In this document: in pieces, positions 3,422 through 41,506 of the stretch | How positions within the stretch are numbered: position 1 is the stretch's first letter | How the letters are laid out: every line of letters starts with the position of its first letter | DNA from: Clostridia bacterium | GTDB lineage: Bacteria > Bacillota > Clostridia > Christensenellales > UBA1242 | Direction: 5' to 3' | Assembly (NCBI GenBank): GCA_017505165.1 | Contig: JAFVPU010000217.1 | Span: forward strand, 1 to 42,624 | Length of the DNA stretch: 42,624 nucleotides | The notes under the pieces: generated by a model | Databases searched by the model: none | Seen by the model: the letters and a program-made list of their open reading frames with translations, nothing else | Told to the model about the DNA's origin: nothing | Position numbers and translations under genes: made by a program

Positions 3422-4459
3422 TTACTTGCTTTTCGGTTTGAAAGCAGACAGCGCATAAGAAGCATCGGCAATGGATTCGCGAGTAGCTTTTGCAAGATAC
3501 TTGCTGAACTCAGAGTGATACTTCATAACGCGAGAACGAAAGTCACCAGAAGCTTCGTCTTTTTTCTCGGCATTGGCGCGTTTGACATTGTCGTTCGTGG
3601 TCTTGCGTTGCTCAGCAGTCATACCGGCAGCTTCGGCTTGCGCCTTCGTCACCTGTTTGTTACTGTACTGTTCTTTTGTGATAGCGAAAGAATTCTTTTC
3701 GATACCATCAGCAACACGATCGATTTCAGCTTTGGCAGCTTCGAGAACAACAAGACGCTGCTCAAGTTTTTCAAGCAAAGCAATAGCTTTTTCGCCTTTA
3801 CCAGCAGAAACTTCAACTTCAGAACCAGCAGCCACCTTGAGCATACGTTCAAGCGGATCTTTTCCACTTTCAGTTTTTTTGGTGAATTCTTCAGTATCGA
3901 TTTTGAGATCAGGATCGTTAAGTGAAGCATTAACTTTCTTGATCGCATTGGCGAACAGCTCTTTCATCGCGTTGTTATTGTATTCGATAACACTCAATTC
4001 AGGAACTTTGATGACGAGTTTTTCGATACCACCAGCATTCTTAATAGCCTGGATACGTTCACGAATTTTGGTACGCATGGCTTTGGAAGAGCTGAAAAAT
4101 TTGGCAAAGAAAGCTTTGATTTTGGCCCAGAGGGTTTTCAGCCATTTGACGAAACGAGCCCAAAGACCTTCTTTGGCGTTTCCAGCGGCCTCGAGAGAGA
4201 AACCTTCACGGAAGTTGCTGCCAACGAGAGCTTCGAGAGCGGGGCTGTTACCATGATCTGCGAGAACTTCGCAGATAGCGCCGAGGTTCTCCATAGCGCT
4301 AGCAATAGCGCCGATGCCATCGGCGATAACAACTGCTTCAGCAGCTTCATCATTGAACTGCATGACAGTATCGAGATATTCATAAGAGAGAATATCACCG
4401 GTCACTTCAAGTTCCTGCTGATCAGCAAGAGCTTCGAGACCCAGATCGAATTTACTCAT
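3422..4459 (-). CDS. hypothetical protein, paralog family member P4 (345 aa), probably an abundant virion protein
   Basis: I trimmed ORF track entry 3422-4573 to the internal ATG at 4459 (MSKFDLGLEALADQQELE), which has AAGGAG 8 nt upstream. The 38 upstream codons have no RBS and a non-protein-like composition. The coding sequence is Ala/Lys/Glu-rich with G/C-rich codons. Confidence 0.8.
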   Translation of the reverse strand: MSKFDLGLEALADQQELEVTGDILSYEYLDTVMQFNDEAAEAVVIADGIGAIASAMENLGAICEVLADHGNSPALEALVGSNFREGFSLEAAGNAKEGLWARFVKWLKTLWAKIKAFFAKFFSSSKAMRTKIRERIQAIKNAGGIEKLVIKVPELSVIEYNNNAMKELFANAIKKVNASLNDPDLKIDTEEFTKKTESGKDPLERMLKVAAGSEVEVSAGKGEKAIALLEKLEQRLVVLEAAKAEIDRVADGIEKNSFAITKEQYSNKQVTKAQAEAAGMTAEQRKTTNDNVKRANAEKKDEASGDFRSRVMKYHSEFSKYLAKATRESIADASYALSAFKPKSK

Positions 4460-4659
4460 AAGAGAATCTCCTTGAATAACATTTGTTTGATCAATTCCAT
4501 ATGGGCTTCTTCCAGCACTTAAAAGAATATGGAATACGATTTTGTTGTAAAATGTGCTGATTTGGATACACACATATAATGATAGTACGCATACTTATTT
4601 ACACATAAACTTTTAATTAATAAGCACACAGTATATGATTTAACAGGAGGACATTTACT

Positions 4660-5756: not shown

Positions 5757-5764
5757 CATAAAGC

Positions 5765-5802
5765 AAGATACTAGTGGGTCGATATCGACCCACTAGTATC
5801 TT
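5765..5802. terminator. 38-nt perfect palindrome H7 at a convergent junction
   Basis: aagatactagtgggtcgat/atcgacccactagtatctt, centred on GATATC, between the stops at 5756 (+) and 5810 (-). Confidence 0.8.
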
Positions 5803-5809
5803 CATATTT

Positions 5810-6148: not shown

Positions 6149-8392
6149 TTAACCGATAAGATCGATCTGAACCAAATCGAATCGATCATTATTCAAACTG
6201 TTTGTACCAGTTCTGCTATTTAGCTTCATAGTGTAATTTGTACCATTGAACACTAGTGTACACGACACCAAACAAAGGTCGTCCACAAAATACAAAGCCT
6301 CAGCAGACAAGGTGGTATTTTGACAGTTTACTTTCTGAGAGCGTCCGATTAGATATTTCTCAGTATAACGATCAAACACTTTAAATTCAACCGCTTTAAC
6401 CTGTGTCAAATCAATATCTGTTCCAGTGATAATAGGAGTAACTTCGTAACCTGAAGTAAGTATTTCAGGAACATCGCCAAATTCTGCATCACTGTGGGAT
6501 ACAGATACTTCTTCTATTGCATTCATCGGAATACTTCCAACAAAAACAGTATATCCTGCAGGATATAACGGGACAAGATTGGATGTACGATCGATTGCGG
6601 ATTTCCAATCAAACACGTAACTCTTGCGTTTTTCTGAATCTTCAGTATAATCACCATAGCGAACCACATTGTTCGTATAGTAATCGACTTTTGTGTTATC
6701 AGTTCCAGGACGTTCTTTTCCAAGCGTATCAATCAAATCCCAAGGACTCTTTGCACCAGTCATATCATCAACAATAACAGTACAGAGAGTCGGAGTCTGA
6801 CTAGTCATAGACATCTGTAACATGATTCCTCGTTCCGTACCAGGTTTATCTGCAAGTTGAGCAGAACACCAGATAAGACGGAATTTAGGAAGAACTCGTT
6901 TTGTGAAGTACTCGAACTTGTTCTTATCAAATGATGGAATGTCTGCGTGGTACACTGAAATATCAATTACTTTTGCAGCATTCGTATCAAACGTGATCTT
7001 AACATCCATGAAGAAATCCATATCTGGAACTTTAATACGAAACTCTCCAATACAAGATGTTGGAACAGGAGCATCTGCCGTCCAAGGATTGCGATCTACA
7101 AATGCAATATTCACCCACTTATCTGTCTGTGCAGTTGTGTATTTGAATCTTTGTGACTGGAAGTGACCAATCGTGTGTTCAATCAACTGCTGACGATATA
7201 CGAGTTCTTTGATGATTGATGTATTTGACAGATTCGACACAGTGACAATGTCCATTGCAGTAACTGTGCGATAAACATTCTGAACAATGTCTTTCAAAGC
7301 GTTGATATCTGCTTGAGTAACTTCACCACCGAATGCCTGGTATGACACAAATACTTTTCCAACAAAGCTCTTTTTAAGAACAATGTATTCGTAAACTCCA
7401 CAAGTTGGATCAGAGACTGCTGTTTTTTCTTTATTGATGCCAGTTACGACATAATCACCTTCAATCACATTACCATTGGTATCTACTGTTTCTTTTGTCA
7501 AAACAGTTGTACCAGCTGTTGGATCCTGATCTGGTTGGAATTCCAATCTTAAAGATGATGTATTGTAGAAAGAACCACACTGAGGTCGAATGACATAAAG
7601 ATTATTGACAACATCAACTCGATGAACTTCTCCTGTGATGTAGTTCTCAATCTTAGCACCAGTAAGATCTTCTTCCAAACAATGCATGTCTGCTGTAGTT
7701 GTAGCAGATACATTGTTAATTGGATTACGAACGTAGTATAGCTCTTCAATCTTATCAATCATTGATCGCATGAGACCAGGGCTGTACTCAGGGCCAAGAC
7801 CATCCTGCTGAATTGCCATGCACTCAAGTTCAAGTGCTTGATACTCAACTGCAATTTCATATTCACCAGATTCAGCAATATCACTTGAAGAATCGTTCAT
7901 GAAGAACTTATTAATAAGTTCAAAATTCCACGTATCCTGATCTTTTTCATAGTACTGTATGTTTCCGGAAGAATCTTTAGGAATGGCAGCACCGACAGTA
8001 TACGAAGTAAACAATTTGTAAGTTGTTACACCATTTTCAATTGATTTGAAATAATAGTTCTTACCAGATTGATAATGAGTGTCTGCAGTTGGAAGAAACT
8101 CAGGAGCATCATAACCATATCTGAATTTGGCTTTTGCCGTAGCAGTAATATCTTTACAACTACTATCGATGTTCCATTGTTTAGCATAACTTCCTTTGTT
8201 GATCAATGTCAAACTCGGGTTGTTATTTTCATCGACACCAGTTACGAGATACACTTTAAGTGTATGTGCATAAGCAGTGTCTTCAAGATCCACTGTTTGG
8301 TTAGCAGTAAAGATTTTGAATCTTCGCAGATCCCTTTTATAACTACTATTCTCTCCAGTGAGATCTAATTGATTCGGATCAGTAATAATCAT
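6149..8392 (-). CDS. large virion protein (747 aa), possible tail fibre or baseplate component
   Basis: ORF track. GAGGA RBS. Contains the PTADTHYQSGKNYYFK motif also present in the next two upstream ORFs. The function is inferred only from size, context and this motif. Confidence 0.6.
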   Translation of the reverse strand: MIITDPNQLDLTGENSSYKRDLRRFKIFTANQTVDLEDTAYAHTLKVYLVTGVDENNNPSLTLINKGSYAKQWNIDSSCKDITATAKAKFRYGYDAPEFLPTADTHYQSGKNYYFKSIENGVTTYKLFTSYTVGAAIPKDSSGNIQYYEKDQDTWNFELINKFFMNDSSSDIAESGEYEIAVEYQALELECMAIQQDGLGPEYSPGLMRSMIDKIEELYYVRNPINNVSATTTADMHCLEEDLTGAKIENYITGEVHRVDVVNNLYVIRPQCGSFYNTSSLRLEFQPDQDPTAGTTVLTKETVDTNGNVIEGDYVVTGINKEKTAVSDPTCGVYEYIVLKKSFVGKVFVSYQAFGGEVTQADINALKDIVQNVYRTVTAMDIVTVSNLSNTSIIKELVYRQQLIEHTIGHFQSQRFKYTTAQTDKWVNIAFVDRNPWTADAPVPTSCIGEFRIKVPDMDFFMDVKITFDTNAAKVIDISVYHADIPSFDKNKFEYFTKRVLPKFRLIWCSAQLADKPGTERGIMLQMSMTSQTPTLCTVIVDDMTGAKSPWDLIDTLGKERPGTDNTKVDYYTNNVVRYGDYTEDSEKRKSYVFDWKSAIDRTSNLVPLYPAGYTVFVGSIPMNAIEEVSVSHSDAEFGDVPEILTSGYEVTPIITGTDIDLTQVKAVEFKVFDRYTEKYLIGRSQKVNCQNTTLSAEALYFVDDLCLVSCTLVFNGTNYTMKLNSRTGTNSLNNDRFDLVQIDLIG

Positions 8393-8405: not shown

Positions 8406-9725
8406 TTACTGGTTATTGTTCATTGTAACAAGAGCTTCCTCAAGATGAGCAACCATTCCTTTTAGTCTGATATTTTCCATATAAATTTGATTTGTAGTTT
8501 GGAAATCAAACAAATTAGAATATGTAACTGTTGAGGATTTTTTATTCTCTTCTCGTTCTTTATTTATTTTTTCAGCTTCACTTGTTGTCAACCAGATATT
8601 ATCGTATTCTGTCAGTGTTACCAAAGACTCAGATACATTAGCTGGTTTGATACCATATCTCTTTTCAAAGAGCTTTGTGAGCACATCTTTCATATCTTCC
8701 AAATTAGACAATCCAGTATCAACTCCCATGTCTATTGTAAGAAGAATTTTTGAATATTTATCAACCGAAGGGTCTGCTTCTTTGATAAAGATCTGTGGCA
8801 TATAAATCACAACAGACTTATCTGTTGGATCAGACAATTTGTATATTGAAGTATCTGCCAACCTGTTTTTATCAGATTCATAGATTTCTTTTTTCAATCC
8901 AATTATCTGATACAAGTTAGCATATAAATCAATGCCAGCTGCAATCAAATCGAAATAAGGCATAACCTTTTCCAACTTGAACACACCAGCATTAATTGGT
9001 TGATTAGGAATTGGTTCTCCAGAGCTATCAACACGATAACCCAATACTTCAAAATCTGAAATAAACTTAAACCGATAAACCTTATCAATAGTCAAGTTCA
9101 TGTTGATATATCGATCTAATGTTCTCTGAACATAAACTTCTTTAGTTCGTACAACATTAGTCTCTCTATAAACATCACCTGTAACAAGATTTGTCGTTGT
9201 CGTAATTGTGGTGATTGTACCAGCAGTTTCGTCAACAATAGGATCACTGACAACAGAAGTGAATGAAGATTCATCCCAAATATCAACTCCTGCAGATGTG
9301 ATGGTAACGCCATCAGCATCTTCCCAAATAACACCAGGATGAGCTGGAGATATAGTGTCATCATCCAAAACTGCACAATAGACATAATTATCAGATGGAA
9401 CACCAGATATAATAGGAACAATTTCCCATTGACCTACATTAAAACGTTCGTAGTAAACATTTTGTGGAACTTCATCTGCTCTATCGTGCAACTCTTCATC
9501 TAGAACATATTGGTTGTTCACGTATTTATAATACGCTTTACCAGGTTCGAATGTTGCATCAGCAGTTAACCTATATTCAGGATTCAACTGTCTGTATCGC
9601 ATCCGGTACAATCTATCAACAGAATCCCACACTCTCGCTGTATTAATGGTATCTGCACTCAGAAGAGTGTAGGTACCATTAACATTTGGAGTAGGGAATC
9701 CTTTAATGAATATACCCTGAGACAT
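8406..9725 (-). CDS. virion protein (439 aa), possible tail fibre or baseplate component
   Basis: I trimmed ORF track entry 8406-9734 to ATG 9725 (MSQGIFIKG), which has AGGTGAGGA upstream. It overlaps the end of the upstream gene by 23 nt. Contains the LTADATFEPGKAYYKY motif. Confidence 0.6.
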   Translation of the reverse strand: MSQGIFIKGFPTPNVNGTYTLLSADTINTARVWDSVDRLYRMRYRQLNPEYRLTADATFEPGKAYYKYVNNQYVLDEELHDRADEVPQNVYYERFNVGQWEIVPIISGVPSDNYVYCAVLDDDTISPAHPGVIWEDADGVTITSAGVDIWDESSFTSVVSDPIVDETAGTITTITTTTNLVTGDVYRETNVVRTKEVYVQRTLDRYINMNLTIDKVYRFKFISDFEVLGYRVDSSGEPIPNQPINAGVFKLEKVMPYFDLIAAGIDLYANLYQIIGLKKEIYESDKNRLADTSIYKLSDPTDKSVVIYMPQIFIKEADPSVDKYSKILLTIDMGVDTGLSNLEDMKDVLTKLFEKRYGIKPANVSESLVTLTEYDNIWLTTSEAEKINKEREENKKSSTVTYSNLFDFQTTNQIYMENIRLKGMVAHLEEALVTMNNNQ

Positions 9726-11517
9726 GTTCCTCACCTGTAGTTACAATGACATTACCATCGAACACTCCCTCAGCTCCAGCAAGAGTAAGAACGTGGTATT
9801 CGGTTGAATTAGAAACAAAAGAATAATACTCTCGTTTCGAACCAGATCCTAGTTCTTCTCGTGTAAATTCATTGTCAGAAAGAGAGATTGTCTTATCGAT
9901 ACAAGCAGCAACACATCTAGCAAGCGACCAAGCAAATGCTTTTGTTGCAGAAGTCATTGTGTTCCAATCATCTTTTTCAATCACATAGATTCTCTCATAA
10001 ATCACAGGAGAAGTTGGAACTCCATCATTGAGATTATACACAACATCGTTAATTCGTGTGACACCAAATGTGATTGGAATGAATTCATGTTCTGCAAGTG
10101 GATTCTGATAGTAGTATTGCTTGTCGAGAAACACCGAATCATTTGTTGGTTTAAATTCAGTAACTGATCCAACAGAATCCAATGGTTGATAAGTCGGATG
10201 AATAGCAAGAATCGACTTATACAAGTTACTGTCATCAATACCTACAGGCATTGTAATCATGTACATGCCGTGACCAGGTGCTTGAATGATTTCTGCATAA
10301 TCAAACAATTGTTGATCAGTAAATTCATCTCCTGTAAAGATGTTTCTCAGACGAGAATACATGGTTTTATAATTGGAGATGTTCTGTTCAATGACGTTGT
10401 CTCCGAATGATGCACGCTGGTAGTAACATGGAAAAATATAAAAACCAGAATCAACAAAAAGATCTGGTAGTACTTTCTTCCACTCAGATTCATCTGCCAA
10501 CAATGATCCAGTGATACTATTTGTTTCAGCAAGAAGTTTTTCTTTAATTGCAGCACGCATTGCAGCAGACGAAGGAGCTGCACCTTTGTACATAACAACA
10601 AAACCCATCTGTGCATCACTCGATACATTAGCATGAACATATCTGGTTTTGTACACAGATATACCACTATGGTCTCGTGCAGTTATCGCATCATCAAGCA
10701 CAGAATCTTTGTAGTTTGAAGACTGAAGAACAGCTTTAACTTCACTTCCATACAGAACTGGATCCAAGATCCATTCTGGTTTACATGGATAAACTACGTC
10801 CGTTATAGTAGAGAAAGGATAATTGCTTTTGAACTCATCAGTACTCAGCCAAACTTTGATCTCAACTATATCTGTATCGTTCTCACCATACTTGAACTTG
10901 AATTCACACCAATTGTAGAAATCAAGATTATCAGAACTGAGTATAGTTGTATCTGGAACTTTGGTATAACGATAAACGGCACGTTCCGTGATTGTTGTTG
11001 AAAGCTTCAGAGATTCTGGAACATATCCTGCAAATGTTGATCCTGTTGCACCAGTTAGAATAGCTTCAATTGCAGATAAACTTTTAATATGAGCAGTATC
11101 TGTTCTTGCAAAAAATACAGCTTCGACAATATTGAACAGTGCAGCACGTCGAACAACTTTCTCGTTGATAACCGTATCGTTGTCATTTCCAACATCAACA
11201 GTGATAGAAGAAATAAATGCGCGTTCAGTAGATTCTGCAAGACCGAGCTTACTTGCATCGAGATTGAAAAACATTCTACCAACAGCACGCACAGCAACTG
11301 CTCCACCAGTAGATTCATCAACAGATTGACGAGTCGTTCTATTGATTGCTCGTGTCGAGCCAACTGGATCGTTGATAACTGTATGATCATCGAAATAATT
11401 CAACAAGTTGTCATCGAGGATACCGAGTTTATACTTCTGTATATCCTTAACTGGCATAACAGAAGACTGTGCGCTAGTTACAGCAAATGCTTCATCAGAA
11501 AGAAATGAATAAATCAT
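9703..11517 (-). CDS. virion protein (604 aa), function unknown
   Basis: ORF track. GAGGT RBS. First gene of the minus-strand block 5810-11517. Contains the KPTNDSVFLDKQYYYQ motif. Confidence 0.65.
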   Translation of the reverse strand: MIYSFLSDEAFAVTSAQSSVMPVKDIQKYKLGILDDNLLNYFDDHTVINDPVGSTRAINRTTRQSVDESTGGAVAVRAVGRMFFNLDASKLGLAESTERAFISSITVDVGNDNDTVINEKVVRRAALFNIVEAVFFARTDTAHIKSLSAIEAILTGATGSTFAGYVPESLKLSTTITERAVYRYTKVPDTTILSSDNLDFYNWCEFKFKYGENDTDIVEIKVWLSTDEFKSNYPFSTITDVVYPCKPEWILDPVLYGSEVKAVLQSSNYKDSVLDDAITARDHSGISVYKTRYVHANVSSDAQMGFVVMYKGAAPSSAAMRAAIKEKLLAETNSITGSLLADESEWKKVLPDLFVDSGFYIFPCYYQRASFGDNVIEQNISNYKTMYSRLRNIFTGDEFTDQQLFDYAEIIQAPGHGMYMITMPVGIDDSNLYKSILAIHPTYQPLDSVGSVTEFKPTNDSVFLDKQYYYQNPLAEHEFIPITFGVTRINDVVYNLNDGVPTSPVIYERIYVIEKDDWNTMTSATKAFAWSLARCVAACIDKTISLSDNEFTREELGSGSKREYYSFVSNSTEYHVLTLAGAEGVFDGNVIVTTGEEHVSGYIH

Positions 11518-11717
11518 GTAGCGTAACCTCGTAATTTGATTTAAATTTAGGGGAATAATCCCTTATTATACATGTATAGGATGGCATAATTTCAACCACC
11601 ATTATTGTACATTTTATTTATATTTTTTCTGGTATCATCAAATACTCGTAAGACATATATACATATATTACTATCATGAAGCACTTTCAGTAATCTTCAT
11701 GGTAGAAAGGATAAAAG

Positions 11718-12920
11718 ATGTCTTATGAGAAAGAACAGATTAACACAGGCCCACTGACTCGATGTTTTCCTGGTTACTATTCTGAAGTATTGATTCAGAA
11801 TAATACAAGAAACACTATTGTAGTCATAGACTGTAACAACAACAAAACAAACGTTCCTCCAATCAGTGGAAACCACATTGGAAGAGAAATGGTAATCATT
11901 TGGATACGAAAAACTATCAACCCAACTGTAGATACAAATAATAGACCGAATCAAATACCTGGAACAAGAATAAACATCCCATTACACGATCTTAATCGTG
12001 AAGGTGGATTTTACATAGATGAAATCAATATGGTACTTTGTACCGAAGCAACTGCAACAATCGCCTCTCACCCGAAAAGCAGTGTAACATTTGCTGATGC
12101 ATCCGATCAAGCAAGATCTCAAATGATCGAGGCACTTGATAAATCTCCAACGCTAAAATTAACAGCTAATGACCCAGAAGGGAGATACAACAAACTGTTC
12201 ACTACGTTTGGTGATATGCTAGTAGAAATAGAAGTACAGCACATGTATGGAGAAGCAGAAATGCAGATCAATTATTTCTACAAAGATAAGCAGGATTCAT
12301 TTGTGGTTGATCTCGATGAATTTTTCAATGGAGAAGAAGAAACACTTGAGCTTCAAGATCTTCCGATCACTTTCTTAACAACCAACAAAACACGAGCTCT
12401 TCGGTATACTGGGGAATATAAAAGAGTTCCACAGGCTGAAGTAGATGAATTATTGAAGAAAGCTGCAACAAGATCAGCTAAAGAAGTTTCAGCAGTAAAA
12501 GACAAATTCGAAACAGAATTAACTCTTAGAGATTCAGAAACAAAAAGACTCAACGATGCTCTTAAAAACATGACAGCAGAAAGAGATCAGTTAGAATTAA
12601 AACTTAAAGAACTGACTGCTGTTATAAGTGCATCAAATACCATGAAAGAAAAAGAAGTGAAATCTCAAGAGTTAGACAACAAAGCTCATATATCTAACAA
12701 CAATGTTGATATATCACATAACGATGTTAGGACATCTGAAGCAAAACGAGATTCAGCAGAAACAGAATCAAAATACAAACTTTGGCATATTGTCGCAGCA
12801 GCATCAATACCAGTAGCTGGAGCACTGATACTTAAGGTTATAAGTGGATCAACATCGAAACAAATCGTAGCACAAAGTACTACGACATCAAATATCGCAA
12901 ACTTAACATGTCTGTTATAA
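11718..12920 (+). CDS. coiled-coil protein with a C-terminal transmembrane helix (400 aa)
   Basis: ORF track. GAAAGGA RBS. A long heptad-like K/E/L-rich segment (about aa 240-330) is followed by LWHIVAAASIPVAGALILKVI near the C-terminus. Confidence 0.65.
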   Translation: MSYEKEQINTGPLTRCFPGYYSEVLIQNNTRNTIVVIDCNNNKTNVPPISGNHIGREMVIIWIRKTINPTVDTNNRPNQIPGTRINIPLHDLNREGGFYIDEINMVLCTEATATIASHPKSSVTFADASDQARSQMIEALDKSPTLKLTANDPEGRYNKLFTTFGDMLVEIEVQHMYGEAEMQINYFYKDKQDSFVVDLDEFFNGEEETLELQDLPITFLTTNKTRALRYTGEYKRVPQAEVDELLKKAATRSAKEVSAVKDKFETELTLRDSETKRLNDALKNMTAERDQLELKLKELTAVISASNTMKEKEVKSQELDNKAHISNNNVDISHNDVRTSEAKRDSAETESKYKLWHIVAAASIPVAGALILKVISGSTSKQIVAQSTTTSNIANLTCLL

Positions 12921-12932
12921 CAAGGAGGATAC

Positions 12933-14468
12933 ATGCAAGACATATGGAAAAGATTACTATCTGGAGCATCGGATCTTCTTCCTGATTTCAACGACGAATT
13001 ATTGTTGCATTTCAGACCAAGAAAGATTCATCAGATCAGAAATTATCTGAATGACTTATTCAGTGAATCCGTCAAAATGTTTGACGGAAGGTTGAAGTAT
13101 ATTGGTTGGAGAGAACTCTCTCCTGACGAGCGTATTGAATACATCAAAAACAACGCCATCACTAAGAAACGGATTGAAGTTCAGAAGAGTTCGTTTGAAC
13201 TTCTTGAATACGATTTTGAATTTGAAGGAGTGATACACCCTATCTACATTCATGTTCCTTATCTCGATCATGGTGCAGTGTGGTTAAGTGATACACAATA
13301 CTTTCCACTGTTCCCAATCGTAGAACGTGGTGGTTTGCATCGTACAGCACATGATATCATTATCAAAGTGATGAGAGCACCGCTTACGTTCAAAAGAAGC
13401 GAAACTTATACATTCAACACTGACAAAGGAAAACAGTTTAGAGAAACTGTCATTACAGTGAAGATTCACCAACGCAAAAGAGGACGTGGTGGTAAACGTA
13501 CTGATAGAACTCCGTTGTTGTTGTATCACCTTACTCAACAGCCTTTTGATAAAGTGATGCAGATGTATGGTTTTGCTCCTGGTGAAATCACACTTGTCAA
13601 CACATATGAACCTGATGAGAAATTCTCATATATCAAGATCAAAGACAACATTTTCCTGAAAGTTCTTGACACAGCTTTCGGTAATATCAACAAACGTCGC
13701 GTCATTGCAAGTTATCTCACATGTCTCGAAGAGTATCCGAAGTTTGACCTGAGAAACCTGCTTGATACACAGTTGAACTATTACTGGACTGTTCTCGGAA
13801 AATACACATATCCGACGAACACTAACGGATTGTTGCTGTATGATAATGCGAGAAAACATCTTGAAACAACAGATACATTGCTTGATCCTCCAGCACAGTA
13901 CCAGTTGAGTCAGATCGGTATCAATGTGAAAGATATCTACGAACTTCTGTTTGTTGTGTTCTTCAATATTGATAACTGGATCGTCACATACAACCCAACA
14001 AACTTATACGAAAAGAAGATTGGTGCACTTGACCAAATCATGGCACCTCTTGTCACACTCATCAATAACAAATTGTTCCAAATCGTCAACAACAAAGCTG
14101 AAGGTCTCACACAAGAAACTGTGAAACGATTCGCATCTTCTGCAAGTCAGCATGAAAGCTGGCTTATGGGTAACAATGCATTTCGTGCTAATCCTTCTAT
14201 CTGTAACGATTGTTGGATGTTGGCTATTGGTACAAAACGTTTCCGTTCACTTGAGAATACAGAAACAAAAGGAAGCAATGCTTCGCAGAACATGCCTGTG
14301 GCTTTGTTGAAAGCACATCCAAGTCAATTGGTTGTCGAATCATTATTAGCTCTTCCACCGTCAGCTCCAATACGCACGGGAGAAATCTCTGCGTTCATTC
14401 AAATCGATGAAGACGGAAACATCATACCGCCATCGTGGGCGAAGGAACTCGATCATGTCTTTGATTGA
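12933..14468 (+). CDS. putative multisubunit RNA polymerase beta subunit, N-terminal half (511 aa), highly diverged
   Basis: AAGGAGG RBS. Colinear matches by eye to bacterial RpoB: [29 protein letters not shown] ~ [49 protein letters not shown] ~ [32 protein letters not shown] ~ HLGNRRIRSVGEM; KRFRSL ~ KRRISAL; AHPSQ...[24 protein letters not shown] ~ [37 protein letters not shown]. The ORF ends where split beta subunits of jumbo phages end. Confidence 0.6.
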   Translation: [511 protein letters not shown]

Positions 14469-14634: not shown

Positions 14635-16272
14635 ATGTACAATGGTTATCAGAACCAGGAACTCATGGCTGCAGAAGCTGAGTTCCAGAGACAACTGGGA
14701 AGTCTTGCTGCAACAGGAAGATTCTCTCAGCAACAGATCGCATACATCCAAAGTGTATGGGAACAACAGAAAGCGGTTGCGTATGACGGAGCCAGACAGA
14801 GACTCAACAGTCCTGTCATCGGAAGTGCCCTTACGAACTTCGTTCAGGGGTTCATCAACCTCGTCATCAAACAGATAACTTCTACTGTGCCAATGGGCAA
14901 TCCGTATGGTTACGGAATGGCAGCAGCTGGTCCGTTCATGGGAAATCCTTACGGAGGAATGCCGATGATGCAGATGAGTCCATTCTCACAGCCGTCATAT
15001 CAGCAGATGCAGGGAATCAATTACATGCCCCAGCAGACACCTGAACAGAGTAGTGGAAATCCGTATGCTTCCATACCTCAGCAGCATCCACAGACCACTC
15101 AGCAGACTGTCAAACAGGAACAGAAAGACACTGCACCTGCAAAGACGCTGACCATCAAGAAAGTGGAATATGTTGCACCTACAGTTGAAGACAACGACAC
15201 TGCATATGGAAACGAGGAACACATCACTTCGATCGGTTCCATAAAAGTAATCCCCATGAGGGATTGTATTGGTGCACCATTCAAACAGGTGATGATCAGA
15301 CTTGCACATCCGTGTCGTAACAAAATGGAAGCGATCAATCAAGCACGGTTGCTTTATAAAGACAAAAGTGTGTCTCACATTGATATCCAGTATGATCTTG
15401 CGATCACACTGCCTATCGCATATGACAAGGGAAAGAAAGTCTTCACCTCTCTCAAGAAAGCAATACCGAAAACAGTTGCCGCGGCCAACCAGCTGAAATA
15501 CATTCAAGCTATTCAGAAAGTTCTGGATGATGAAACTCGTGGTGTTGCGAATGTTCTTGAGGACTTCATGGTTGATCGGTTCAATTATGTCGCAGGTGTT
15601 GGGTGTGTTGATTGTGATTATAATGGAGTATTCTCTATTGAATCACTGAGAGCACTCATCAACTTGTCTGATAAAGACACTGCTGACAAAGCATGTCAGG
15701 CATGGCAGGCAAAAGCAGGTTTCATGAACGGTCTGATCAATTGCTGTAACAGCACGATCAAGAATGATATCACAAATTGTGAGATTCTTGACCCGTCAGA
15801 TCCGAAACGATTCATGACTATCATCAAGCACTTCACCGGACTCACTGAATCTGATGAAGGAAAGCTTATCGATGTTGGTCTGGAACTTCTTCCGAAAGCA
15901 GAAGAATTCTGTAAAGCATCTCAGAAAGAAAAAATGACCAACTTCGGAGCAGCTGGTGAAATTGTTGCAGGTTCCACAACGATTCTGTTGAAGAATCAGC
16001 ATCTTGTTCTGACTGATCTGATTCCTGAATCATCTATGGGTCGGATGTCTGACAACTCGCTATGTATTGCAGCTAAAACTCTTATCATTGGTGGTTACAC
16101 CAATGATGAACCGAATGAAATCGATAGCAACTTTGAGTACATGATGCTCAAAGCATCTCTCGGTTCCGAACATTGGGTTGATATTGTTGTCAACTACAAT
16201 CAGGTTCTCATGAGTATGAAAGCTGTTCAGTCTATTGATAAATGGACTGTCATCACACCAACCACATTCTGA
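14635..16272 (+). CDS. hypothetical protein (545 aa) with an N-proximal Q/P/M/G/Y low-complexity domain
   Basis: ORF track. TAGGAGA RBS. Residues about 86-163 contain three GNPY repeats and many Q, P and M residues. The C-terminal roughly 380 aa look globular and Cys-containing. Confidence 0.75.
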   Translation: MYNGYQNQELMAAEAEFQRQLGSLAATGRFSQQQIAYIQSVWEQQKAVAYDGARQRLNSPVIGSALTNFVQGFINLVIKQITSTVPMGNPYGYGMAAAGPFMGNPYGGMPMMQMSPFSQPSYQQMQGINYMPQQTPEQSSGNPYASIPQQHPQTTQQTVKQEQKDTAPAKTLTIKKVEYVAPTVEDNDTAYGNEEHITSIGSIKVIPMRDCIGAPFKQVMIRLAHPCRNKMEAINQARLLYKDKSVSHIDIQYDLAITLPIAYDKGKKVFTSLKKAIPKTVAAANQLKYIQAIQKVLDDETRGVANVLEDFMVDRFNYVAGVGCVDCDYNGVFSIESLRALINLSDKDTADKACQAWQAKAGFMNGLINCCNSTIKNDITNCEILDPSDPKRFMTIIKHFTGLTESDEGKLIDVGLELLPKAEEFCKASQKEKMTNFGAAGEIVAGSTTILLKNQHLVLTDLIPESSMGRMSDNSLCIAAKTLIIGGYTNDEPNEIDSNFEYMMLKASLGSEHWVDIVVNYNQVLMSMKAVQSIDKWTVITPTTF

Positions 16273-16281
16273 AAAGAATAA

Positions 16282-16317
16282 AGTAGATAGAGGAGTGCTA
16301 ACACTCCTCTATCTACT
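16282..16317. terminator. 16-bp perfect hairpin H8 at a convergent junction
   Basis: agtagatagaggagtg-ctaa-cactcctctatctact, followed by atttatttttt on the + strand. Confidence 0.85.
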
Positions 16318-16331
16318 ATTTATTTTTTGAC

Positions 16332-20214: not shown

Positions 20215-20257
20215 TATAAAACCTTTCACCCTATTTAATATAAGGAATTTGCATACA

Positions 20258-23065
20258 ATGCCTGGATTTAAAAAGAAGTATCCAGTAAGGAAACTTTCAA
20301 GACTTTACAAGATTTTTGGAGTTCAGTTTCCAGAGGATATGCCAAAAATGGAACACTCTGATTCCATCATCATGAACACACATACTCAGGCAGAACTTCG
20401 GCACATGCCTGGAATGATGGAATACGTTCAGAATGATCAAACACCGAACACTTCTGAGCTAACAAGCTATCTTACTAAAGTTGCAAAGTCTAACAATGAC
20501 TGGATTCAACAATCAGATGCTATTCGAGTTCTTACTCCAGAAATCGATCGTTCAGCAGAGATCATGGTGTCATCGATCCTAAGTCCCACAGACATGCAAT
20601 CTGATACGATCAATATCGTTTGTGATGGTTCTGATCTTGGAGAAGAAATTGAACAAAAAGTTGGTGATGAATTAACAAACTTCTTCAACGACAAATTGGA
20701 ACTTGGAGATCTTATTTACAAATACACAAGAGAATCTTTGTATGGATCTGGTTCATGTGCTATCATGGTACTCCCTCCAAGAAACATCGACATCTTGAAT
20801 ACTGCCATTGATAATGATCTCATTAAAGCTGGTGTTTTAAAATCTTCAAAAAGAAAAAGCACTAAGATATCTGCTGATAATACTGCCCTTGTTTCTCCAT
20901 CCATGGAATCAGCATTTGCTTCTACTGAATCAATGTTCACTTCAGTGCACACTAGTACTGAAGCACTTGAATCAGCAATTGAGCAAGACATGCTCCTAGC
21001 AATAGAAGCAGCAAATCCTATGGTCGGAATGAAACCAGGAGAAGTTATAACCAAATCTAAAGAAGCTCGTAAACAAATATTAGATCTATTCAAAGACAGC
21101 AAAAGCCATATTGTTATGTCATCAGATCTTACTGGTTTGAGAAAAGGAAAAGATCATCTGTCAGACGTAGCTTCTAAATTGAGTGATGAAATAGAAAAAC
21201 ATTTCTTATTTGATCAAAACTCACCAACATTTCTTTTGGATTCAGAATGCGATGATGGTAGTGATAAAAATCCTGCTATTATCGAAATTCCAACACGAGC
21301 AGTTGTGCCTGTTATAATTCCTGGATCTCCAGACAAACATATCGGATATTTTATTCTTGTTGATCAATGGGGAAATCCCATGGTTGAAGGAGAAGGTAAC
21401 AATCCTCCTGGATTTGGTCCAAGAAAACTTACAGAATCAGCAACTCAGGCGGCTTTTGGTGCTCCTAATCTTTATAGGTTCGGGTCTAATATTACCGATG
21501 AACAAAGATATGATATCACAAATACCATCTTTGGTATTACGTTTAAACACCTAATCGAAGCTAAACTCGATGACTTTGGATTGAGTGGTACTACAATCGG
21601 TGAGTACGATGCTATCACTTCTTGCATGTTCCGTAACTTGCTTAATAGAAAAAAATGTGTTCTTGTATTTGTACCAGAACCTCTTATGGTTTATTACAGA
21701 TTTGAACACAGACCAGATGGTACTGGTAAATCAATCACCGAAAGCATGAGTACAATGTTGGCATTGAGAACAGTTCTGCTTATGTCATACATCATGGCAG
21801 CTACTGAAAACTCGATTGACAACAAAGTGATTTCTGTTGCAGTTGATGAAAAACAAACAAACTTGCAGCAATATCTGGATATGATAAGAAATGCATATGT
21901 TGCAAAACGAATGATGCGTTTCGATATCAATCCTCTCACAGTTCAACAGGATCTTATTCAAAAGTCATTAACTATTCTCCCTAAAGGGATCAAGGGTATC
22001 TCAGATAGTTTAGATGTACAGACTGAACATAGATCAACTGGAGCTGTAATGCCAGATGATGGGCTACTTGAAAAAATCGGTAACTGGATCATCACGTGGC
22101 TTCAAGTGCCACATAGTGCACTTAATCATCTTTCAGAAAATGAATATTCCCGTTCTGTTGCAACAACTAACTTATTCTTCAGTAACAATGTGAAGAGTAA
22201 ACAAAAAGTTGTTATAAAACATTCTACCAAATTCGTACGGTTATACACAAGGTATTCACCACACCTACGTGGTAAGATTGAAGAAACTCTTAAAACAACA
22301 GAAAAGACTTCTAAAGCAAACGCATCAAGTGAAGCCGATACTTCACCAAAATCAAAGATAACAGTAGAAACAAATGATGACAGCATCAAGAAAAATGTTG
22401 CCAAAATTATAAGCTGTATCAAAACAACTCTTCCATCTCCCAAGATTGTTGTTGACAAAGCACAATACGAAGAGATTGAAAAATATCTTGATACTGTCGA
22501 GAAGATCTGTGATTACATTTACAGTGACGATCTTGTATCTGGTGGAGAACAAGTACAAGAACTCGCTGATACACTCAAGATGATGCGTGCTAATATCAGA
22601 TCCAATATGGTACGTGATTACATCGATAATATCGGATTCCAGAGTTCTTATGATCTCCCATATCCTGAAGATGTCAACTTCAAGAATACTCAGGATCTTG
22701 TACAATTACTTTCTAACCAGAGAAAAGGTCTTAACGACTGGATGACCTTCATTGTTCAGAAAGCTAAATCGGATGATCTCGAAAATCCTGAAGGTTCTGA
22801 AAACAATAATTCTGGATCTTATACATATGGAAATGACTATGGAAGTCAACCAGAAGATACTGGCATGAATGAAGACTACGGTGTGCCCAATCCCCCTGAA
22901 TTAGGAGATGAAGGCAATCCTGAAGAAGGAACCACCAACGCTGGTGGGGACGAAACTGAAGGAGTACCAAATCCTCCAAGTTTGGACGAAGGATCACCTG
23001 AAGAAGAAAACGCTGGAACAAATGAAGAAACCTACGAAGATGTTCCTCCACCACCTAGCCTCTAA
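20258..23065 (+). CDS. large virion protein (935 aa), possible portal protein
   Basis: I trimmed ORF track entry 20249-23065 (TTG start) to ATG 20258, which has TAAGGAA 10 nt upstream. The portal call rests only on size, position in the structural module and an acidic Pro-rich C-terminal tail. No diagnostic motif was verified. Confidence 0.4.
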   Translation: MPGFKKKYPVRKLSRLYKIFGVQFPEDMPKMEHSDSIIMNTHTQAELRHMPGMMEYVQNDQTPNTSELTSYLTKVAKSNNDWIQQSDAIRVLTPEIDRSAEIMVSSILSPTDMQSDTINIVCDGSDLGEEIEQKVGDELTNFFNDKLELGDLIYKYTRESLYGSGSCAIMVLPPRNIDILNTAIDNDLIKAGVLKSSKRKSTKISADNTALVSPSMESAFASTESMFTSVHTSTEALESAIEQDMLLAIEAANPMVGMKPGEVITKSKEARKQILDLFKDSKSHIVMSSDLTGLRKGKDHLSDVASKLSDEIEKHFLFDQNSPTFLLDSECDDGSDKNPAIIEIPTRAVVPVIIPGSPDKHIGYFILVDQWGNPMVEGEGNNPPGFGPRKLTESATQAAFGAPNLYRFGSNITDEQRYDITNTIFGITFKHLIEAKLDDFGLSGTTIGEYDAITSCMFRNLLNRKKCVLVFVPEPLMVYYRFEHRPDGTGKSITESMSTMLALRTVLLMSYIMAATENSIDNKVISVAVDEKQTNLQQYLDMIRNAYVAKRMMRFDINPLTVQQDLIQKSLTILPKGIKGISDSLDVQTEHRSTGAVMPDDGLLEKIGNWIITWLQVPHSALNHLSENEYSRSVATTNLFFSNNVKSKQKVVIKHSTKFVRLYTRYSPHLRGKIEETLKTTEKTSKANASSEADTSPKSKITVETNDDSIKKNVAKIISCIKTTLPSPKIVVDKAQYEEIEKYLDTVEKICDYIYSDDLVSGGEQVQELADTLKMMRANIRSNMVRDYIDNIGFQSSYDLPYPEDVNFKNTQDLVQLLSNQRKGLNDWMTFIVQKAKSDDLENPEGSENNNSGSYTYGNDYGSQPEDTGMNEDYGVPNPPELGDEGNPEEGTTNAGGDETEGVPNPPSLDEGSPEEENAGTNEETYEDVPPPPSL

Positions 23066-23080
23066 ATAAATACATATAAC

Positions 23081-23116
23081 ACAACACTAGTAGGCAACAT
23101 TGCCTACTAGTGTTGT
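23081..23116. terminator. 16-bp perfect hairpin H9
   Basis: acaacactagtaggca-acat-tgcctactagtgttgt, followed by ttattcttttt, 16 nt after the stop at 23065. Confidence 0.85.
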
Positions 23117-23216
23117 TTATTCTTTTTAAGCTATATATTACATTAGTGTCTTACTAAATGTCAAATCTATAAATTGGTGACCAGAAAAACAGACTCTGTA
23201 ATCATGATGTGAAGAC

Positions 23217-23252
23217 GAGTAGAGTGTGGTGCTGTAACACCACACTCTACTC
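23217..23252. terminator. 15-bp perfect hairpin H10 (orphan: no adjacent gene)
   Basis: gagtagagtgtggtg-ctgtaa-caccacactctactc. No U-tract on either strand. Confidence 0.5.
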
Positions 23253-23460
23253 TAAGGATCATTCGCTACACAATCATAACAAAAATGAAAGAAGTTTCAT
23301 ATGACTGGTATATTCATCAGAGCTAAGAAACTTCAGGTTGGTGCGCCCACAAAGCCCCAACCAAAGAAGTTCAACGTTAACCTTATTGCACGATTCGTGT
23401 AACTGGTTGATGATCCTATTGCACATTAGTGCATAATACTGATCAGCTTCTATACATTTA

Positions 23461-23490
23461 AAAAGTAAAGTATCCTGTACTTTATTTTTT
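23461..23490. terminator. short hairpin H11 flanked by an A-run and a T-run
   Basis: aaaag-taaagta-tcctg-tacttta-tttttt. The shape is that of a classic bidirectional intrinsic terminator. Confidence 0.6.
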
Positions 23491-23503
23491 GTCAAAATAA
23501 GAA

Positions 23504-23539
23504 AACACAGAGTGGAGCACTGGTGCTCCACTCTGTGTT
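23504..23539. terminator. 17-bp perfect hairpin H12, terminator of the tail tube/sheath operon
   Basis: aacacagagtggagcac-tg-gtgctccactctgtgtt, 10 nt beyond the stop at 23549. On the minus strand it is followed by ttcttattttg. Confidence 0.85.
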
Positions 23540-23548
23540 AGATGATTA

Positions 23549-24616
23549 TCAGGCGTTGGTCGTGGTTTCTTTAACTGCGAATTCCACGTTGTTATACGCG
23601 GTATCCACATGTTTGGTAGCAGGATCTGCTGCCCATGCACGACGGTCGACCATTTCACCTTCGAGACCGAACTCAGAGAGACCACGGTCAACAGTGAGTT
23701 TGTTCGGAGGTGCCACATTGTAGTTGTGGACATGGAGCTGAAGTTTTTCAGCAATAGCCATGGCCAGAGACTTGATGTAGGGGTTGTGCTGAACGATGGC
23801 CTGGAACGTAATAGAACGTTCGGGAACCTTGACGGTACCGATCGTACGTTCAAAACCGATATCACCAGTTCCAGTCGGGAAGACGTTCACATAGTGAGCA
23901 GCATCGATGATACGATCAGGTCTCATCGTTGGGTCGAACTGAATAACCATGAAGGAAGCAGCATAAGCGCTCATGGTGTAAGCGCCAGGGAACTGCACCT
24001 GTGCCATAGACACGTTTGTATCGGGATGATTGATGTCCCAGATCCATTTCTTAGCCCAGTTGAACACAAGGTCACCACTGAGTTCAGTAAAGGTGAAAGT
24101 AGGACTCGGCTGGTTACGAGTAGTCTTTCCAGGAACACCGAACATCTGACTGTCCATACCGACGTTAGCAGAAGTATCAACACCCAGAGAATATCCGAAG
24201 TCAATACCGCTGACAGATTTGGCATGAGACTCCATAAGGTCTTTCGTAAGCTGAGCCATGACTGTGGGTTTGGAACCATCAATCATGTACATCGCAGGAA
24301 CAGAAGTCACAACGATAACAGCAGGGGTGAAAGAACAAGGAGTTGCAACGTCCAACATGGGGGCATTGATACCCATACCAAGCTGGAAGTTTTCGCCAAA
24401 ACGAGGCATCATATCTTCCTGGAGAACACCAGAGATGGTTCCCTGATAAGAACCAGGTAGATAATACTTGGCAGACAGATCATCCTTCTGACCAGTCCAG
24501 TTAACACCAGTATTGGTGAAATCATTGTAGAGGTTGGAACCCCAATCAATGGCGGACTTAGCGTTACGTGCCACAGCAGCGAGGCTACGATTGAAAACAT
24601 GTGCGTCAGTTGACAT
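23549..24616 (-). CDS. putative tail tube protein (355 aa)
   Basis: ORF track. GTGAGG RBS. It lies immediately downstream of the sheath-like gene (2-nt gap). G/C-rich codon bias is typical of abundant structural proteins. The call is by gene order, not by motif. Confidence 0.5.
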   Translation of the reverse strand: MSTDAHVFNRSLAAVARNAKSAIDWGSNLYNDFTNTGVNWTGQKDDLSAKYYLPGSYQGTISGVLQEDMMPRFGENFQLGMGINAPMLDVATPCSFTPAVIVVTSVPAMYMIDGSKPTVMAQLTKDLMESHAKSVSGIDFGYSLGVDTSANVGMDSQMFGVPGKTTRNQPSPTFTFTELSGDLVFNWAKKWIWDINHPDTNVSMAQVQFPGAYTMSAYAASFMVIQFDPTMRPDRIIDAAHYVNVFPTGTGDIGFERTIGTVKVPERSITFQAIVQHNPYIKSLAMAIAEKLQLHVHNYNVAPPNKLTVDRGLSEFGLEGEMVDRRAWAADPATKHVDTAYNNVEFAVKETTTNA

Positions 24617-26976: not shown

Positions 26977-27048
26977 AATTCCTCCATAAGAGTTGTCGTT
27001 TGGGCCATTCCTATGTACAGAAATAGCCTTAAATTAAAGGAGCTAAGC

Positions 27049-28089
27049 ATGAATAATTTCACACTTTTCGACACGTCCTTCGCTAAGGCGCGTTCATTGA
27101 CTTCTATGGCACAGCAAGCTGTACCATTTCTTATCAAAAACGGACCTTTGGTAATCGTGGAAGATATTCGAGATCTCGAATCAGTTAGAGTGTTTTCTTC
27201 TACTCCTCTCAGCAAATTGTTCCAGGACATAACAAATGCTGGAAAGTTGTCGAATTTCACATTCTTGAACCTATCAAGATTCAACAAAGATATTCCAGAA
27301 ATACTTGCATTGGACGATGTTGTTATAGACGCCAAGTTTATTCCAAACACTCCAGTGCCGGCACAGCTCCAGAAATGCTGGGTGAATATCACACCTATAA
27401 CGTCTATTAAGGACTCATACAATGGATCGTTAAATGTGTCAGATGCAGCGGCATTTGCAAGTATGATTGTTCGTGCTGCTATCGTGCAATCATACAACGA
27501 TTCTACATCTGCATGGTTAAATCCAAGACTAGCTACTGTTGTTATTGAAAGTTATGCAATGACAATTTCTCACGTACTTCGTCAAGCATTCACTCTTGGA
27601 TTTGAAGAAGAAAAATTTGTCCAGACTTTATTTGCTGCATACTTTGCACAGATGCTTGGAGATTCAAATGCTCCTCTTAAAGTTCCTCCGATGCTGATGA
27701 GATGTACCTTCCTTGGTTCTGCAGCCGACATCCTCGGACGACTTGAACAGATCGAACAGTACCGTGAGAATAGAGGAGAGGACATTCTTCATCCTATCAA
27801 GATCTGTAATATTCTCTCACAATGTGGTCCTGAACGCATGAAGAAGTTTGTTCCAACAATGTTGTACAGATTTATGAGTTCATCAAGCCTTGATAGCCAA
27901 ACGATGATGATCGCTGTTGACTACCCTGCTTACTGGGTGTTTCAGATGCTTCGTGTTGCTTCTGGTTATAAAAACCCTGTCATGAGCAATGTCATCAAAC
28001 TCAACACGAAAATGAAAACACAGTTAAATGGATTTGCTATGGAACTTCAGAGTTCTAACCAAATTCTTAATAAATTGAATAGAGGATGA
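27049..28089 (+). CDS. hypothetical protein (346 aa)
   Basis: I trimmed ORF track entry 27013-28089 to ATG 27049 (MNNFTLFD), which has AAAGGAG upstream. First gene of the long + strand block. Confidence 0.7.
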   Translation: MNNFTLFDTSFAKARSLTSMAQQAVPFLIKNGPLVIVEDIRDLESVRVFSSTPLSKLFQDITNAGKLSNFTFLNLSRFNKDIPEILALDDVVIDAKFIPNTPVPAQLQKCWVNITPITSIKDSYNGSLNVSDAAAFASMIVRAAIVQSYNDSTSAWLNPRLATVVIESYAMTISHVLRQAFTLGFEEEKFVQTLFAAYFAQMLGDSNAPLKVPPMLMRCTFLGSAADILGRLEQIEQYRENRGEDILHPIKICNILSQCGPERMKKFVPTMLYRFMSSSSLDSQTMMIAVDYPAYWVFQMLRVASGYKNPVMSNVIKLNTKMKTQLNGFAMELQSSNQILNKLNRG

Positions 28090-33093: not shown

Positions 33094-33104
33094 CGACTTT
33101 ATCA

Positions 33105-33138
33105 ACACAGTAGGTGGTGATATCACCACCTACTGTGT
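33105..33138. terminator. 34-nt perfect palindrome H13
   Basis: acacagtaggtggtgat/atcaccacctactgtgt, centred on GATATC, 11 nt after the stop at 33093. The downstream U-tract is weak. Confidence 0.65.
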
Positions 33139-33194
33139 ATGCTTATATTCAGGCCATCGTATACGTATTATTATAACCCTCATTAGGAGGTATT

Positions 33195-36333: not shown

Positions 36334-36350
36334 TATAAAGGAGTAAACCA

Positions 36351-41453: not shown

Positions 41454-41488
41454 AAGAACCCTAGTCAATGAAATCGACTAGGGTTCTT
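41454..41488 (+). terminator. hairpin H15 with U-tract between nrdD and nrdG
   Basis: aagaaccctagtc-aatgaaatc-gactagggttctt, followed by ttttattt. Confidence 0.8.
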
Positions 41489-41506
41489 TTATTTAAAGGA
41501 GACAAA

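Follow-up and report, generated by a model that had tools for sequence, protein, structure and literature searches.

A diverged gene for the N-terminal half of RNA polymerase beta, probably of the non-virion enzyme, in an uncultured jumbo phage

The gene and its setting

We analysed a stretch of 42,624 nucleotides (contig JAFVPU010000217.1, positions 1 to 42,624, of assembly GCA_017505165.1, deposited as a Clostridia bacterium), which as a whole is called the window here. In ENA, its contig is a metagenome scaffold of 43.8 kb. The ORF call gave an uninterrupted open reading frame (ORF) of 511 aa at positions 12933-14468 on the plus strand, and PHROG 2943, profile matches, an AlphaFold2 model and Foldseek all point to a gene for the N-terminal half of the beta subunit (beta-N) of a jumbo-phage multisubunit RNA polymerase (RNAP), most probably of the non-virion type. 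The ATG stands 12 nt past the stop codon of the upstream gene, ORF-B, and 3 nt downstream of a strong Shine-Dalgarno sequence, AAGGAGGA, read from the sequence at 12922-12929 (+). The first-pass annotation of this DNA had placed the gene at the same coordinates and among virion genes, and the ORF call and the PHROG and Pfam matches of the neighbouring genes agree with it on both points.

Homology to the N-terminal half of beta

The sole PHROG match of the ORF was family 2943 ('polymerase'; E 6.6e-54), covering residues 10-499 of 511. A tblastn search against 50,697 phage records matched 102 jumbo phages, infecting Pseudomonas, Erwinia, Ralstonia, Aeromonas, Burkholderia, Bacillus and others, and the annotated matches were labelled RNAP beta subunit or 'nvRNAP beta subunit 1', where nvRNAP stands for non-virion RNAP. 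The best identity to a cultured phage was 20-23.5 %, and no near-identical DNA was found in cultured phages. We also collected 102 metagenomic relatives of the protein with 25-96 % identity, and 31 of these homologues, down to 26 % identity, were used for the family profile and hidden Markov model (HMM), called A1. When run against the PDB, the A1 profile matched two sequences only, both over the whole length: phiKZ gp123 (E 2.8e-32, 115 bits, residues 31-506 against 39-532 of 543) and the beta-N of the AR9 nvRNAP (chain c; E 2e-30, 109 bits, residues 13-494 against 12-470 of 496). Likewise, hhalign aligned the family profile with the gp123-like protein at a probability of 98.8 % (E 1.3e-16, 9-507 against 7-532 of 543).

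The AlphaFold2 model built on the A1 alignment (pLDDT 83.4, pTM 0.80) has the fold of the beta lobe/protrusion half seen in the solved nvRNAP structures. The top PDB matches in Foldseek were gp123, chain E, in three phiKZ nvRNAP structures (including 9rjs_E and 8que_E; TM 0.75-0.80), followed by AR9 7s00_c (TM 0.73-0.77), with E values of 1e-22 to 1e-23 for the phiKZ and AR9 chains. Behind the phage chains came dozens of bacterial beta chains and Rpb2 of Pol II (E 9e-8 to 1e-5, probability 1.00). The comparison with phiKZ and AR9 RNAP subunits that the first-pass annotation had proposed was thus positive in both profile and structure (TM 0.73-0.80 overall). Together with the PHROG match, the full-length homology to characterised nvRNAP beta-N proteins and the predicted fold, it shows that the predicted product is truly homologous to the N-terminal half of RNAP beta, if very diverged. 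The end-to-end alignment with gp123 and AR9 beta-N also bears out a gene split of the phiKZ/AR9 jumbo-phage kind, as had been proposed.

Three segments of the protein were compared with bacterial beta. Residues 116-146 (13278-13370, +) are the counterpart of the bacterial 'NGxERVxVSQLxRSPG' segment according to the HMM and hhalign alignments, in which they face VTINGAKYIGSPVLTDVGFSV of gp123 and IINGNRYYPIYQLLDSGTYRT of AR9. By inspection they would correspond to E. coli beta 133-155, the direct match being non-significant. Residues 417-440 (14181-14252, +) are proposed, from family conservation, as the counterpart of the Rif-cluster I/fork region; R418, P421, N425, D426 and N427 are nearly invariant in the alignment of the 31 homologues, and inspection alone suggests E. 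coli beta 514-533 as the equivalent stretch. Residues 461-498 (14313-14426, +) are the counterpart of the bacterial 'HPxHYGRxCPxETPEGxNIGL...YGF' segment; the HMM alignment set them opposite AR9 HPSYLGRLGLTSTSAGDPGASGSLTPF, in a stretch that ends with DGNII in the ORF, and the profile alignment paired them also with AR9 HPSYLGRLGLTSTSAGDPGASGSLTPFLE and with the C-terminus of gp123. Judged by eye, this segment would match E. coli beta 550-587. The invariant or nearly invariant residues of the family are concentrated here (A461, H462, S464, S470, P475, S477, P479, G483, N486 and G495, with P500 just behind it). The protein ends 13 residues beyond residue 498, at the non-virion split site, so the earlier statement that the ORF stops right after the HP..G...G motif holds.

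Comparison with cellular RpoB

Direct similarity to cellular RpoB was sought in three ways, and all were negative. None of the Pfam Rpb2 domains (RNA_pol_Rpb2_1, _2 and _3) was found in the ORF at E values up to 10, and the family profile reached a probability below 1 % when hhalign compared it with E. coli RpoB; the comparison with RpoB profiles that the first-pass annotation had also proposed was thus negative. In ungapped motif scoring of the three segments against E. coli RpoB, the best match lay outside the homologous region for all three; shuffled segments equalled the motif score in 23, 162 and 927 of 1000 trials, and the score in the homologous register, computed for the C-terminal segment only, was -6. 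The link to RpoB therefore stands on structure and on the solved phage enzymes. The RpoB landmarks listed in the first-pass annotation do lie at homologous positions according to the phage alignments, but their direct motif matches are not above chance, so its conclusion was right although its cues are not statistical evidence.

Regarding the fold, the N-terminal ~600 residues of bacterial RpoB match the model of the ORF (Foldseek E ~1e-7, probability 1.00, TMq 0.42-0.49), and the landmark segments follow in the same order by inspection. Unlike its bacterial counterpart, the ORF product stands alone as a polypeptide, with its end at about E. coli residue 600, and it has no Rpb2 match in Pfam.

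Closest characterised systems

The closest characterised protein is phiKZ gp123 (PHIKZ123; PDB 7OGP, 7OGR, 8QUE and 9RJS, chain E). It shares with the ORF its PHROG, fold and C-terminal split point, as well as a similar length (543 against 511 aa), a location in the capsid/structural block and two colinear flanking genes. However, the identity is only 16 % in the structural alignment and ~21 % by BLAST, ORF-B and the downstream gene ORF-C show no detectable homology to gp122 and gp124, and the genes upstream of ORF-B are inverted relative to phiKZ. Unlike phiKZ, the phage of the window is also uncultured. The beta-N of the AR9 nvRNAP (PDB 7S00, 7S01, 7UM0 and 7UM1, chain c; A0A172JI16, 496 aa) has an aligning 'HPS...G..G' segment and the same split, but the identity is 18 % and AR9 retains more of the bacterial motif (HPSYLGR). 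The AR9 enzyme reads uracil-containing template-strand promoters via gp226 (PMC9209446). The third relative, gp002 of Erwinia phage RAY (tblastn E 4e-13, 21 % identity, residues 8-374), differs in that its BLAST match is limited to the N-terminal three quarters and in that RAY is a chimallin-encoding proteobacterial phage.

The first-pass annotation had placed the phage in or near the phiKZ and AR9 lineages. Homology to both supports a position near them, about equally far from each (115 against 109 bits), but the identities to cultured members suggest that it belongs outside the cultured lineages.

Virion or non-virion polymerase

In phiKZ, the virion RNAP (vRNAP) consists of gp178, gp149, gp180 and gp80, and the non-virion RNAP of gp55, gp68, gp71-73, gp74 and gp123 (PMC8287921). 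We used Pseudomonas phage fMGyn-Pae01 (OR228460.1) as a phiKZ-type reference genome and mapped each subunit to a PHROG. On the non-virion side, the beta-N gp123 fell into PHROG 2943 (E 5.7e-209), the beta-C gp71-73 into 3295 and the beta'-C gp74 into 3015; on the virion side, the beta gp178 fell into 3148, the beta-C gp149 into 3233, the beta'-N gp180 into 2986 and the beta' middle part gp80 into 2962. Hence the ORF shares its family with gp123, and the other phiKZ-type subunits that were mapped are in other families. With all filters off, the A1 HMM scored 116 bits for the gp123-like ORF of fMGyn-Pae01, and hmmsearch with --max gave no score for either the gp178-like or the gp180-like ORF of that genome. 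The hhalign probability of the family profile against the gp178-like protein was 0.55 %, and the ORF had no match to the virion-beta PHROGs 3148, 14872 and 38251 even at E values up to 10.

The beta split sites differ between virion and non-virion enzymes (PMC7598289; see also PMC7824862). The gp178-like protein is 1451 aa long, with a unique N-terminal region of ~500 aa, and its residues 1054-1446 match Thermus beta 536-910, which places the virion beta split much nearer the C-terminus. In such a long virion beta, beta-N is fused to the DPBB domain and the only split comes before the last ~200 aa, which form the gp149 piece. The ORF ends before the DPBB domain and has the form of a stand-alone protein of ~500-550 aa that stops after 'HPS...G...G', at about E. 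coli beta 600; its profile and hhalign alignments extend to ~5-25 residues from the ends of both proteins. An exhaustive profile search returned 941 cluster representatives (50 % identity), and the best 150 of these are almost all ~490-590 aa long and mostly align over their whole length; the split site is thus a conserved one.

The structural matches in BFVD fell into two tiers. The 12 proteins of the first tier measure 496-589 aa and include AR9 beta-N (TMq 0.73-0.86); those of the second, at 921-1463 aa, are of virion-beta size (TMq 0.45-0.59). The phiKZ gp178-type beta (PHROG 3148, ~1450 aa) resembles the ORF in this distant structural similarity and in an internal region that has homology to the same stretch of bacterial beta, with IPVIDNDGRFMSNGVTYRQ at ~570-590 and 'GDGGRG...DSGDVGVIAYL' at ~990-1030 recognised by eye. 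In contrast to the ORF, it is three times longer, carries beta-N fused to the DPBB part, is split at another site and is packaged in the virion, and the two have no significant sequence match.

The behaviour of the RAY homologue also bears on the question. The tblastn match of the ORF in RAY is annotated 'putative nvRNAP beta subunit 1', and this subunit (gp002), fused to GFP, sits with the DNA in the phage nucleus, whereas vRNAP subunits track capsids (PMC10299810). Taken together, we put the probability that the ORF encodes the beta-N of the phage's nvRNAP, as the orthologue of phiKZ gp123, AR9 gp105 and RAY gp002, at about 0.85. The direct support for this assignment is family membership, fold, split site and conserved gene neighbourhood.

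Regarding the virion enzyme of the lineage, IMG/VR contained 13 loci related to that of the window on 12 contigs, mostly of 235-360 kb, with one beta-N each save one contig. Five of these relatives encode, two genes upstream of beta-N, a gp149-like domain of the virion beta-C (PHROG 3233, E 1e-57 to 1e-64), with profile positions 2-5 to 222-223 of 225 covered. The ORFs that carry this domain at their C-terminus are 441 to more than 2425 aa long (L008, 1623-6854; L011, 6071-7393; L012, 1-7275; L013, 3559-7251; L014, 5583-7316). The ORFs of L008, L012 and L013 contain an SNF2 helicase as well, and some have GNAT acetyltransferase, HD or DUF5662 domains. In RAY, an SNF2 helicase is reported to be packaged together with the vRNAP (PMC10299810) and has been proposed to cooperate with the polymerase; the natural fusion of beta-C and SNF2 agrees with both. 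The window has no such beta-C ORF; upstream of ORF-B it carries structural genes on the minus strand. As judged from the domain matches, the relatives show that the lineage has a predicted virion polymerase with a phiKZ-type beta-C boundary.

The first-pass annotation had suggested that the beta-N is a subunit of the virion-packaged RNAP. Such a subunit would enter the cell along with the phage DNA and take part in early transcription. We consider this unlikely. The gene does lie among virion structural genes, but phiKZ gp123 itself lies inside the capsid/structural block, so such a position is not diagnostic of packaging. The gp149-like beta-C of the five relatives is nearby, and since the vRNAP beta can come as up to three polypeptides (Iyer et al., PMC7824862), a virion beta-N on a polypeptide of its own is possible in some phages. 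However, the ORF, reaching to about E. coli beta 600, and a gp149-like beta-C would together omit the DPBB-containing middle of beta, and no RNAP-family match was found among the intervening conserved ORFs. Moreover, the virion beta-C of the lineage is easily picked up by the phiKZ-derived PHROG, whereas the ORF matches no virion beta; as the virion subunits of this lineage are readily recognised by phiKZ-derived profiles, this non-match is significant. The PHROG, the end-to-end architecture and the split site shared with gp123, the absence of detectable similarity to the gp178-type beta and the nuclear rather than capsid-associated RAY homologue all argue in the same direction.

A rearranged or hybrid polymerase set, in which beta-N serves both enzymes or belongs to the phage's sole RNAP, seems very unlikely to us. 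It would agree with the single beta-N copy per IMG/VR contig, with no second beta-N-like protein seen within ±10 kb, and with the closeness of beta-N to the virion beta-C in relatives, but the support amounts to pure absence of data, and the characterised jumbo phages of the group with multisubunit RNAPs (msRNAPs) all have two sets with distinct beta pieces (PMC7598289, PMC7824862). In addition, the gp149-like domain has the same start as in phiKZ, at profile position 2-5 of 225, which implies a gp178-type partner that already contains its own beta-N region. More generally, a non-canonical division of labour, with beta-N also packaged or shared by both polymerases, would be quite improbable. 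That the ORF is a decayed or exapted RpoB-N relic without a polymerase role, e.g. a structural protein, is hardly credible in spite of the very low identity to characterised proteins and the missing Pfam Rpb2 match, as the full-length fold is retained in the AlphaFold2 model and Foldseek, the HPS...P.S.P...G segment is invariant or nearly so in 31 homologues down to 26 % identity, the architecture is the same across the 941 representatives, and gp123 and AR9 beta-N are equally distant from cellular RpoB yet are working subunits (PMC8287921, PMC9209446).

Three observations weigh against the assignment to the nvRNAP. The identity to characterised proteins is just 16-23 %. Neither the 42.6-kb window nor the ±10 kb around beta-N in the 13 related loci yielded a partner subunit of the enzyme (beta-C, beta'-N, beta'-C or a fifth subunit), so that a complete nvRNAP in the lineage is assumed. 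Finally, the nearest RNAP gene in the relatives is the virion-type beta-C, a possible hint of a link to the virion enzyme.

Searches for partner subunits

PHROG and Pfam searches of the ~32 ORFs of the window gave no further RNAP piece. A regular expression for DxDGD had no match in the window or in the loci collected up to then, and no gp178-type beta was found in the window or within ±10 kb of beta-N in the relatives. A profile search with an alignment of the non-virion beta-C of five phages returned mostly phiKZ-like clusters. We also scanned IMG/VR for the DNA pattern of NADFDGD; the matches were mostly from giant viruses, and no contigs of the target lineage were among the matches listed.

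The same scan yielded a family of beta'-N proteins (ORFs of ~510-540 aa with 'INRNPT...LNADFDGD') that is distinct from the phiKZ-type beta'-N. Its three seed loci have a GC content of 28-35 %, and 274 relatives were found in IMG/VR. The best 80 of these 274 (L146-L225), obtained with the low-GC beta'-N as the query, included no target contigs or useful shared genes. The 274-member family indicates a further large uncultured group of jumbo phages encoding msRNAPs.

Proposed role

In phiKZ, the nvRNAP genes are transcribed by the injected virion RNAP. By analogy, the beta-N of the window would be made after infection and would assemble with a separate beta-C, carrying the DPBB domain and the catalytic lysines, and with two beta' pieces; a fifth, lineage-specific subunit is probably part of the complex. 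In the assembled enzyme, beta-N would form the beta lobe/protrusion side of the DNA cleft, i.e. half of the beta pincer, and its fork/'HPS' segment would adjoin the RNA-DNA hybrid and line the hybrid-binding site. Such an enzyme is expected to transcribe the middle and late phage genes without host RNAP. Synthesis during infection, absence from the virion and a middle/late role are known for phiKZ (PMC8287921) and RAY (PMC10299810).

The beta-N described here is a divergent new member of a known family and an expected core component, with no new mechanism. Its gene assigns the contig to a large group of jumbo phages, uncultured and deeply branching, with their own multisubunit RNAPs. It also carries a lesson for annotation: the gene of the non-virion beta-N normally lies inside the capsid/structural block, and its position there is no sign of packaging.

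Gene neighbourhood and synteny

Beta-N is flanked by two conserved neighbours, ORF-B upstream (11718-12920, +; 400 aa, with a C-terminal coiled coil and a hydrophobic tail) and ORF-C downstream (14635-16272, +; 545 aa). In ORF-C, a Q/P/M/G/Y-rich low-complexity N-terminal region of ~190 aa precedes a globular part. Homologues of ORF-B are found directly upstream of beta-N in L008-L019. BLAST detected homologues of ORF-C downstream of beta-N in L008, L009, L013 and L018, and the other relatives have ORFs of similar size at this position without a detectable match. The order conserved across the related loci is ORF-B, beta-N, an ORF-C-sized gene, a large gene on the minus strand and a large virion gene on the plus strand. 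We considered ORF-B and ORF-C as extra RNAP subunits and rejected them: neither had a match in PHROG, Pfam or PDB, hhalign of ORF-C against gp124 gave nothing, and ORF-B against the protein at the phiKZ gp122 position gave a weak hint only (probability 23 %, E 9e-4).

A terminator scan found no terminator-like site in the gap between beta-N and ORF-C. On both strands it showed a bidirectional intrinsic-terminator hairpin at 16282-16317, with a 16-bp stem and T-runs on both sides. ORF-B, beta-N and ORF-C are probably co-transcribed as a unit that ends at this terminator. A 200-bp AT-rich divergent intergenic region lies 5' of ORF-B (11518-11717) and would be the likely promoter region of the unit; matches to a sigma-70-like pattern were no commoner there than in shuffles.

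The wider surroundings are those of a structural block of the phiKZ kind. PHROG matches identified virion structural proteins at 9703-11517, 20249-23065, 23549-24616, 31342-33093 and 34840-35535, a tail sheath protein at 24619-26976, an internal head protein at 3422-4573 and a phiKZ-type head maturation protease at 35752-36333 (+; PHROG 3014, E 5e-26), and Pfam identified a member of the phiKZ vertex-protein family at 27013-28089. The head protease gene adjoins one for a ClpP-like ATP-dependent protease subunit (PHROG 1827, E 7e-35), and the pair spans 35752-37034 (+). No capsid gene was recognised anywhere in the window. As a candidate we examined the 747-aa ORF at 6149-8392 (-), which is exactly as long as the phiKZ major capsid protein, and rejected it, as it had no match in PHROG, Pfam or PDB.

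In fMGyn-Pae01, gp123 is the third gene after the major head protein gene and is flanked by virion structural genes, and in the Chimalliviridae core block 5 includes an RNAP beta subunit alongside structural genes and the capsid protein (PMC10299810). The beta-N of the window holds this conserved position in the capsid/structural block, with immediate neighbours that have no detectable homology to those of gp123. Beyond them, gene order and orientation agree between the window and the phiKZ-type gp123 locus: after beta-N (+) come a large gene of 992 aa (-), the match of one of 724 aa (-) in the phiKZ type (E 1e-18), and then a large virion protein gene of 938 aa (+), the match of one of 896 aa (+) (E 1e-23).

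One of the related contigs, IMGVR_UViG_3300045988_163688 (361 kb), carries the beta-N locus twice (L009 and L010), near both ends and in opposite orientation. This doubling is probably an inverted-duplication artefact of the assembly rather than a feature of a real 361-kb genome.

Interrupted genes and other features

The beta-N gene is interrupted in two relatives, in L008 at ~11414-11837 (~424 bp) and in L009 at ~11423-11730 (~308 bp). They split the most conserved motif, the ETPEG equivalent, between residues 475/476 and 478/479, with a change of reading frame across the insertion. Both have a common conserved core, and the L008 insertion contains a group I-like AGATAGTCCGAAC element, recognised by eye. 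Its folding z-score was -4.6, and Rfam gave no match for it. A structured group I-like insertion at the most conserved motif of beta-N bears on the proposed origin of split RNAP genes by intron mobility.

A similar case was seen in the reference phage fMGyn-Pae01 (L002). The annotated coding sequence (CDS) of its gp180-like virion beta'-N, at 42766-44901 (-), ends with '...SILAPLGAD', and its continuation, FDGDTVSFNAVYSEEA..., is encoded in a different frame inside the 666-bp gap that separates it from the gp178-like gene. The deposited CDS is therefore cut short by an intervening sequence, which interrupts the catalytic DFDGD motif.

In the window itself, the gene for NrdD, the large subunit of the anaerobic ribonucleotide reductase (PHROG 487), is in three pieces, at 38001-39275, 39597-40031 and 40922-41443 (+). 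The first gap contains a match to the group I intron family RF00028 at 39222-39489 (29 bits, E 5e-5, below the gathering score), and the second an HNH endonuclease ORF at 40134-40901. NrdG follows the NrdD pieces at 41468-42082. No tRNAs were found in the window. Nearly all its intergenic gaps contain a long perfect hairpin followed by T-runs (e.g. 1286-1427, 2313-2385, 5757-5809, 16273-16331, 23066-23548 and 33094-33194), several of them between convergent genes, and the genes have strong ribosome-binding sites of the AGGAGG type.

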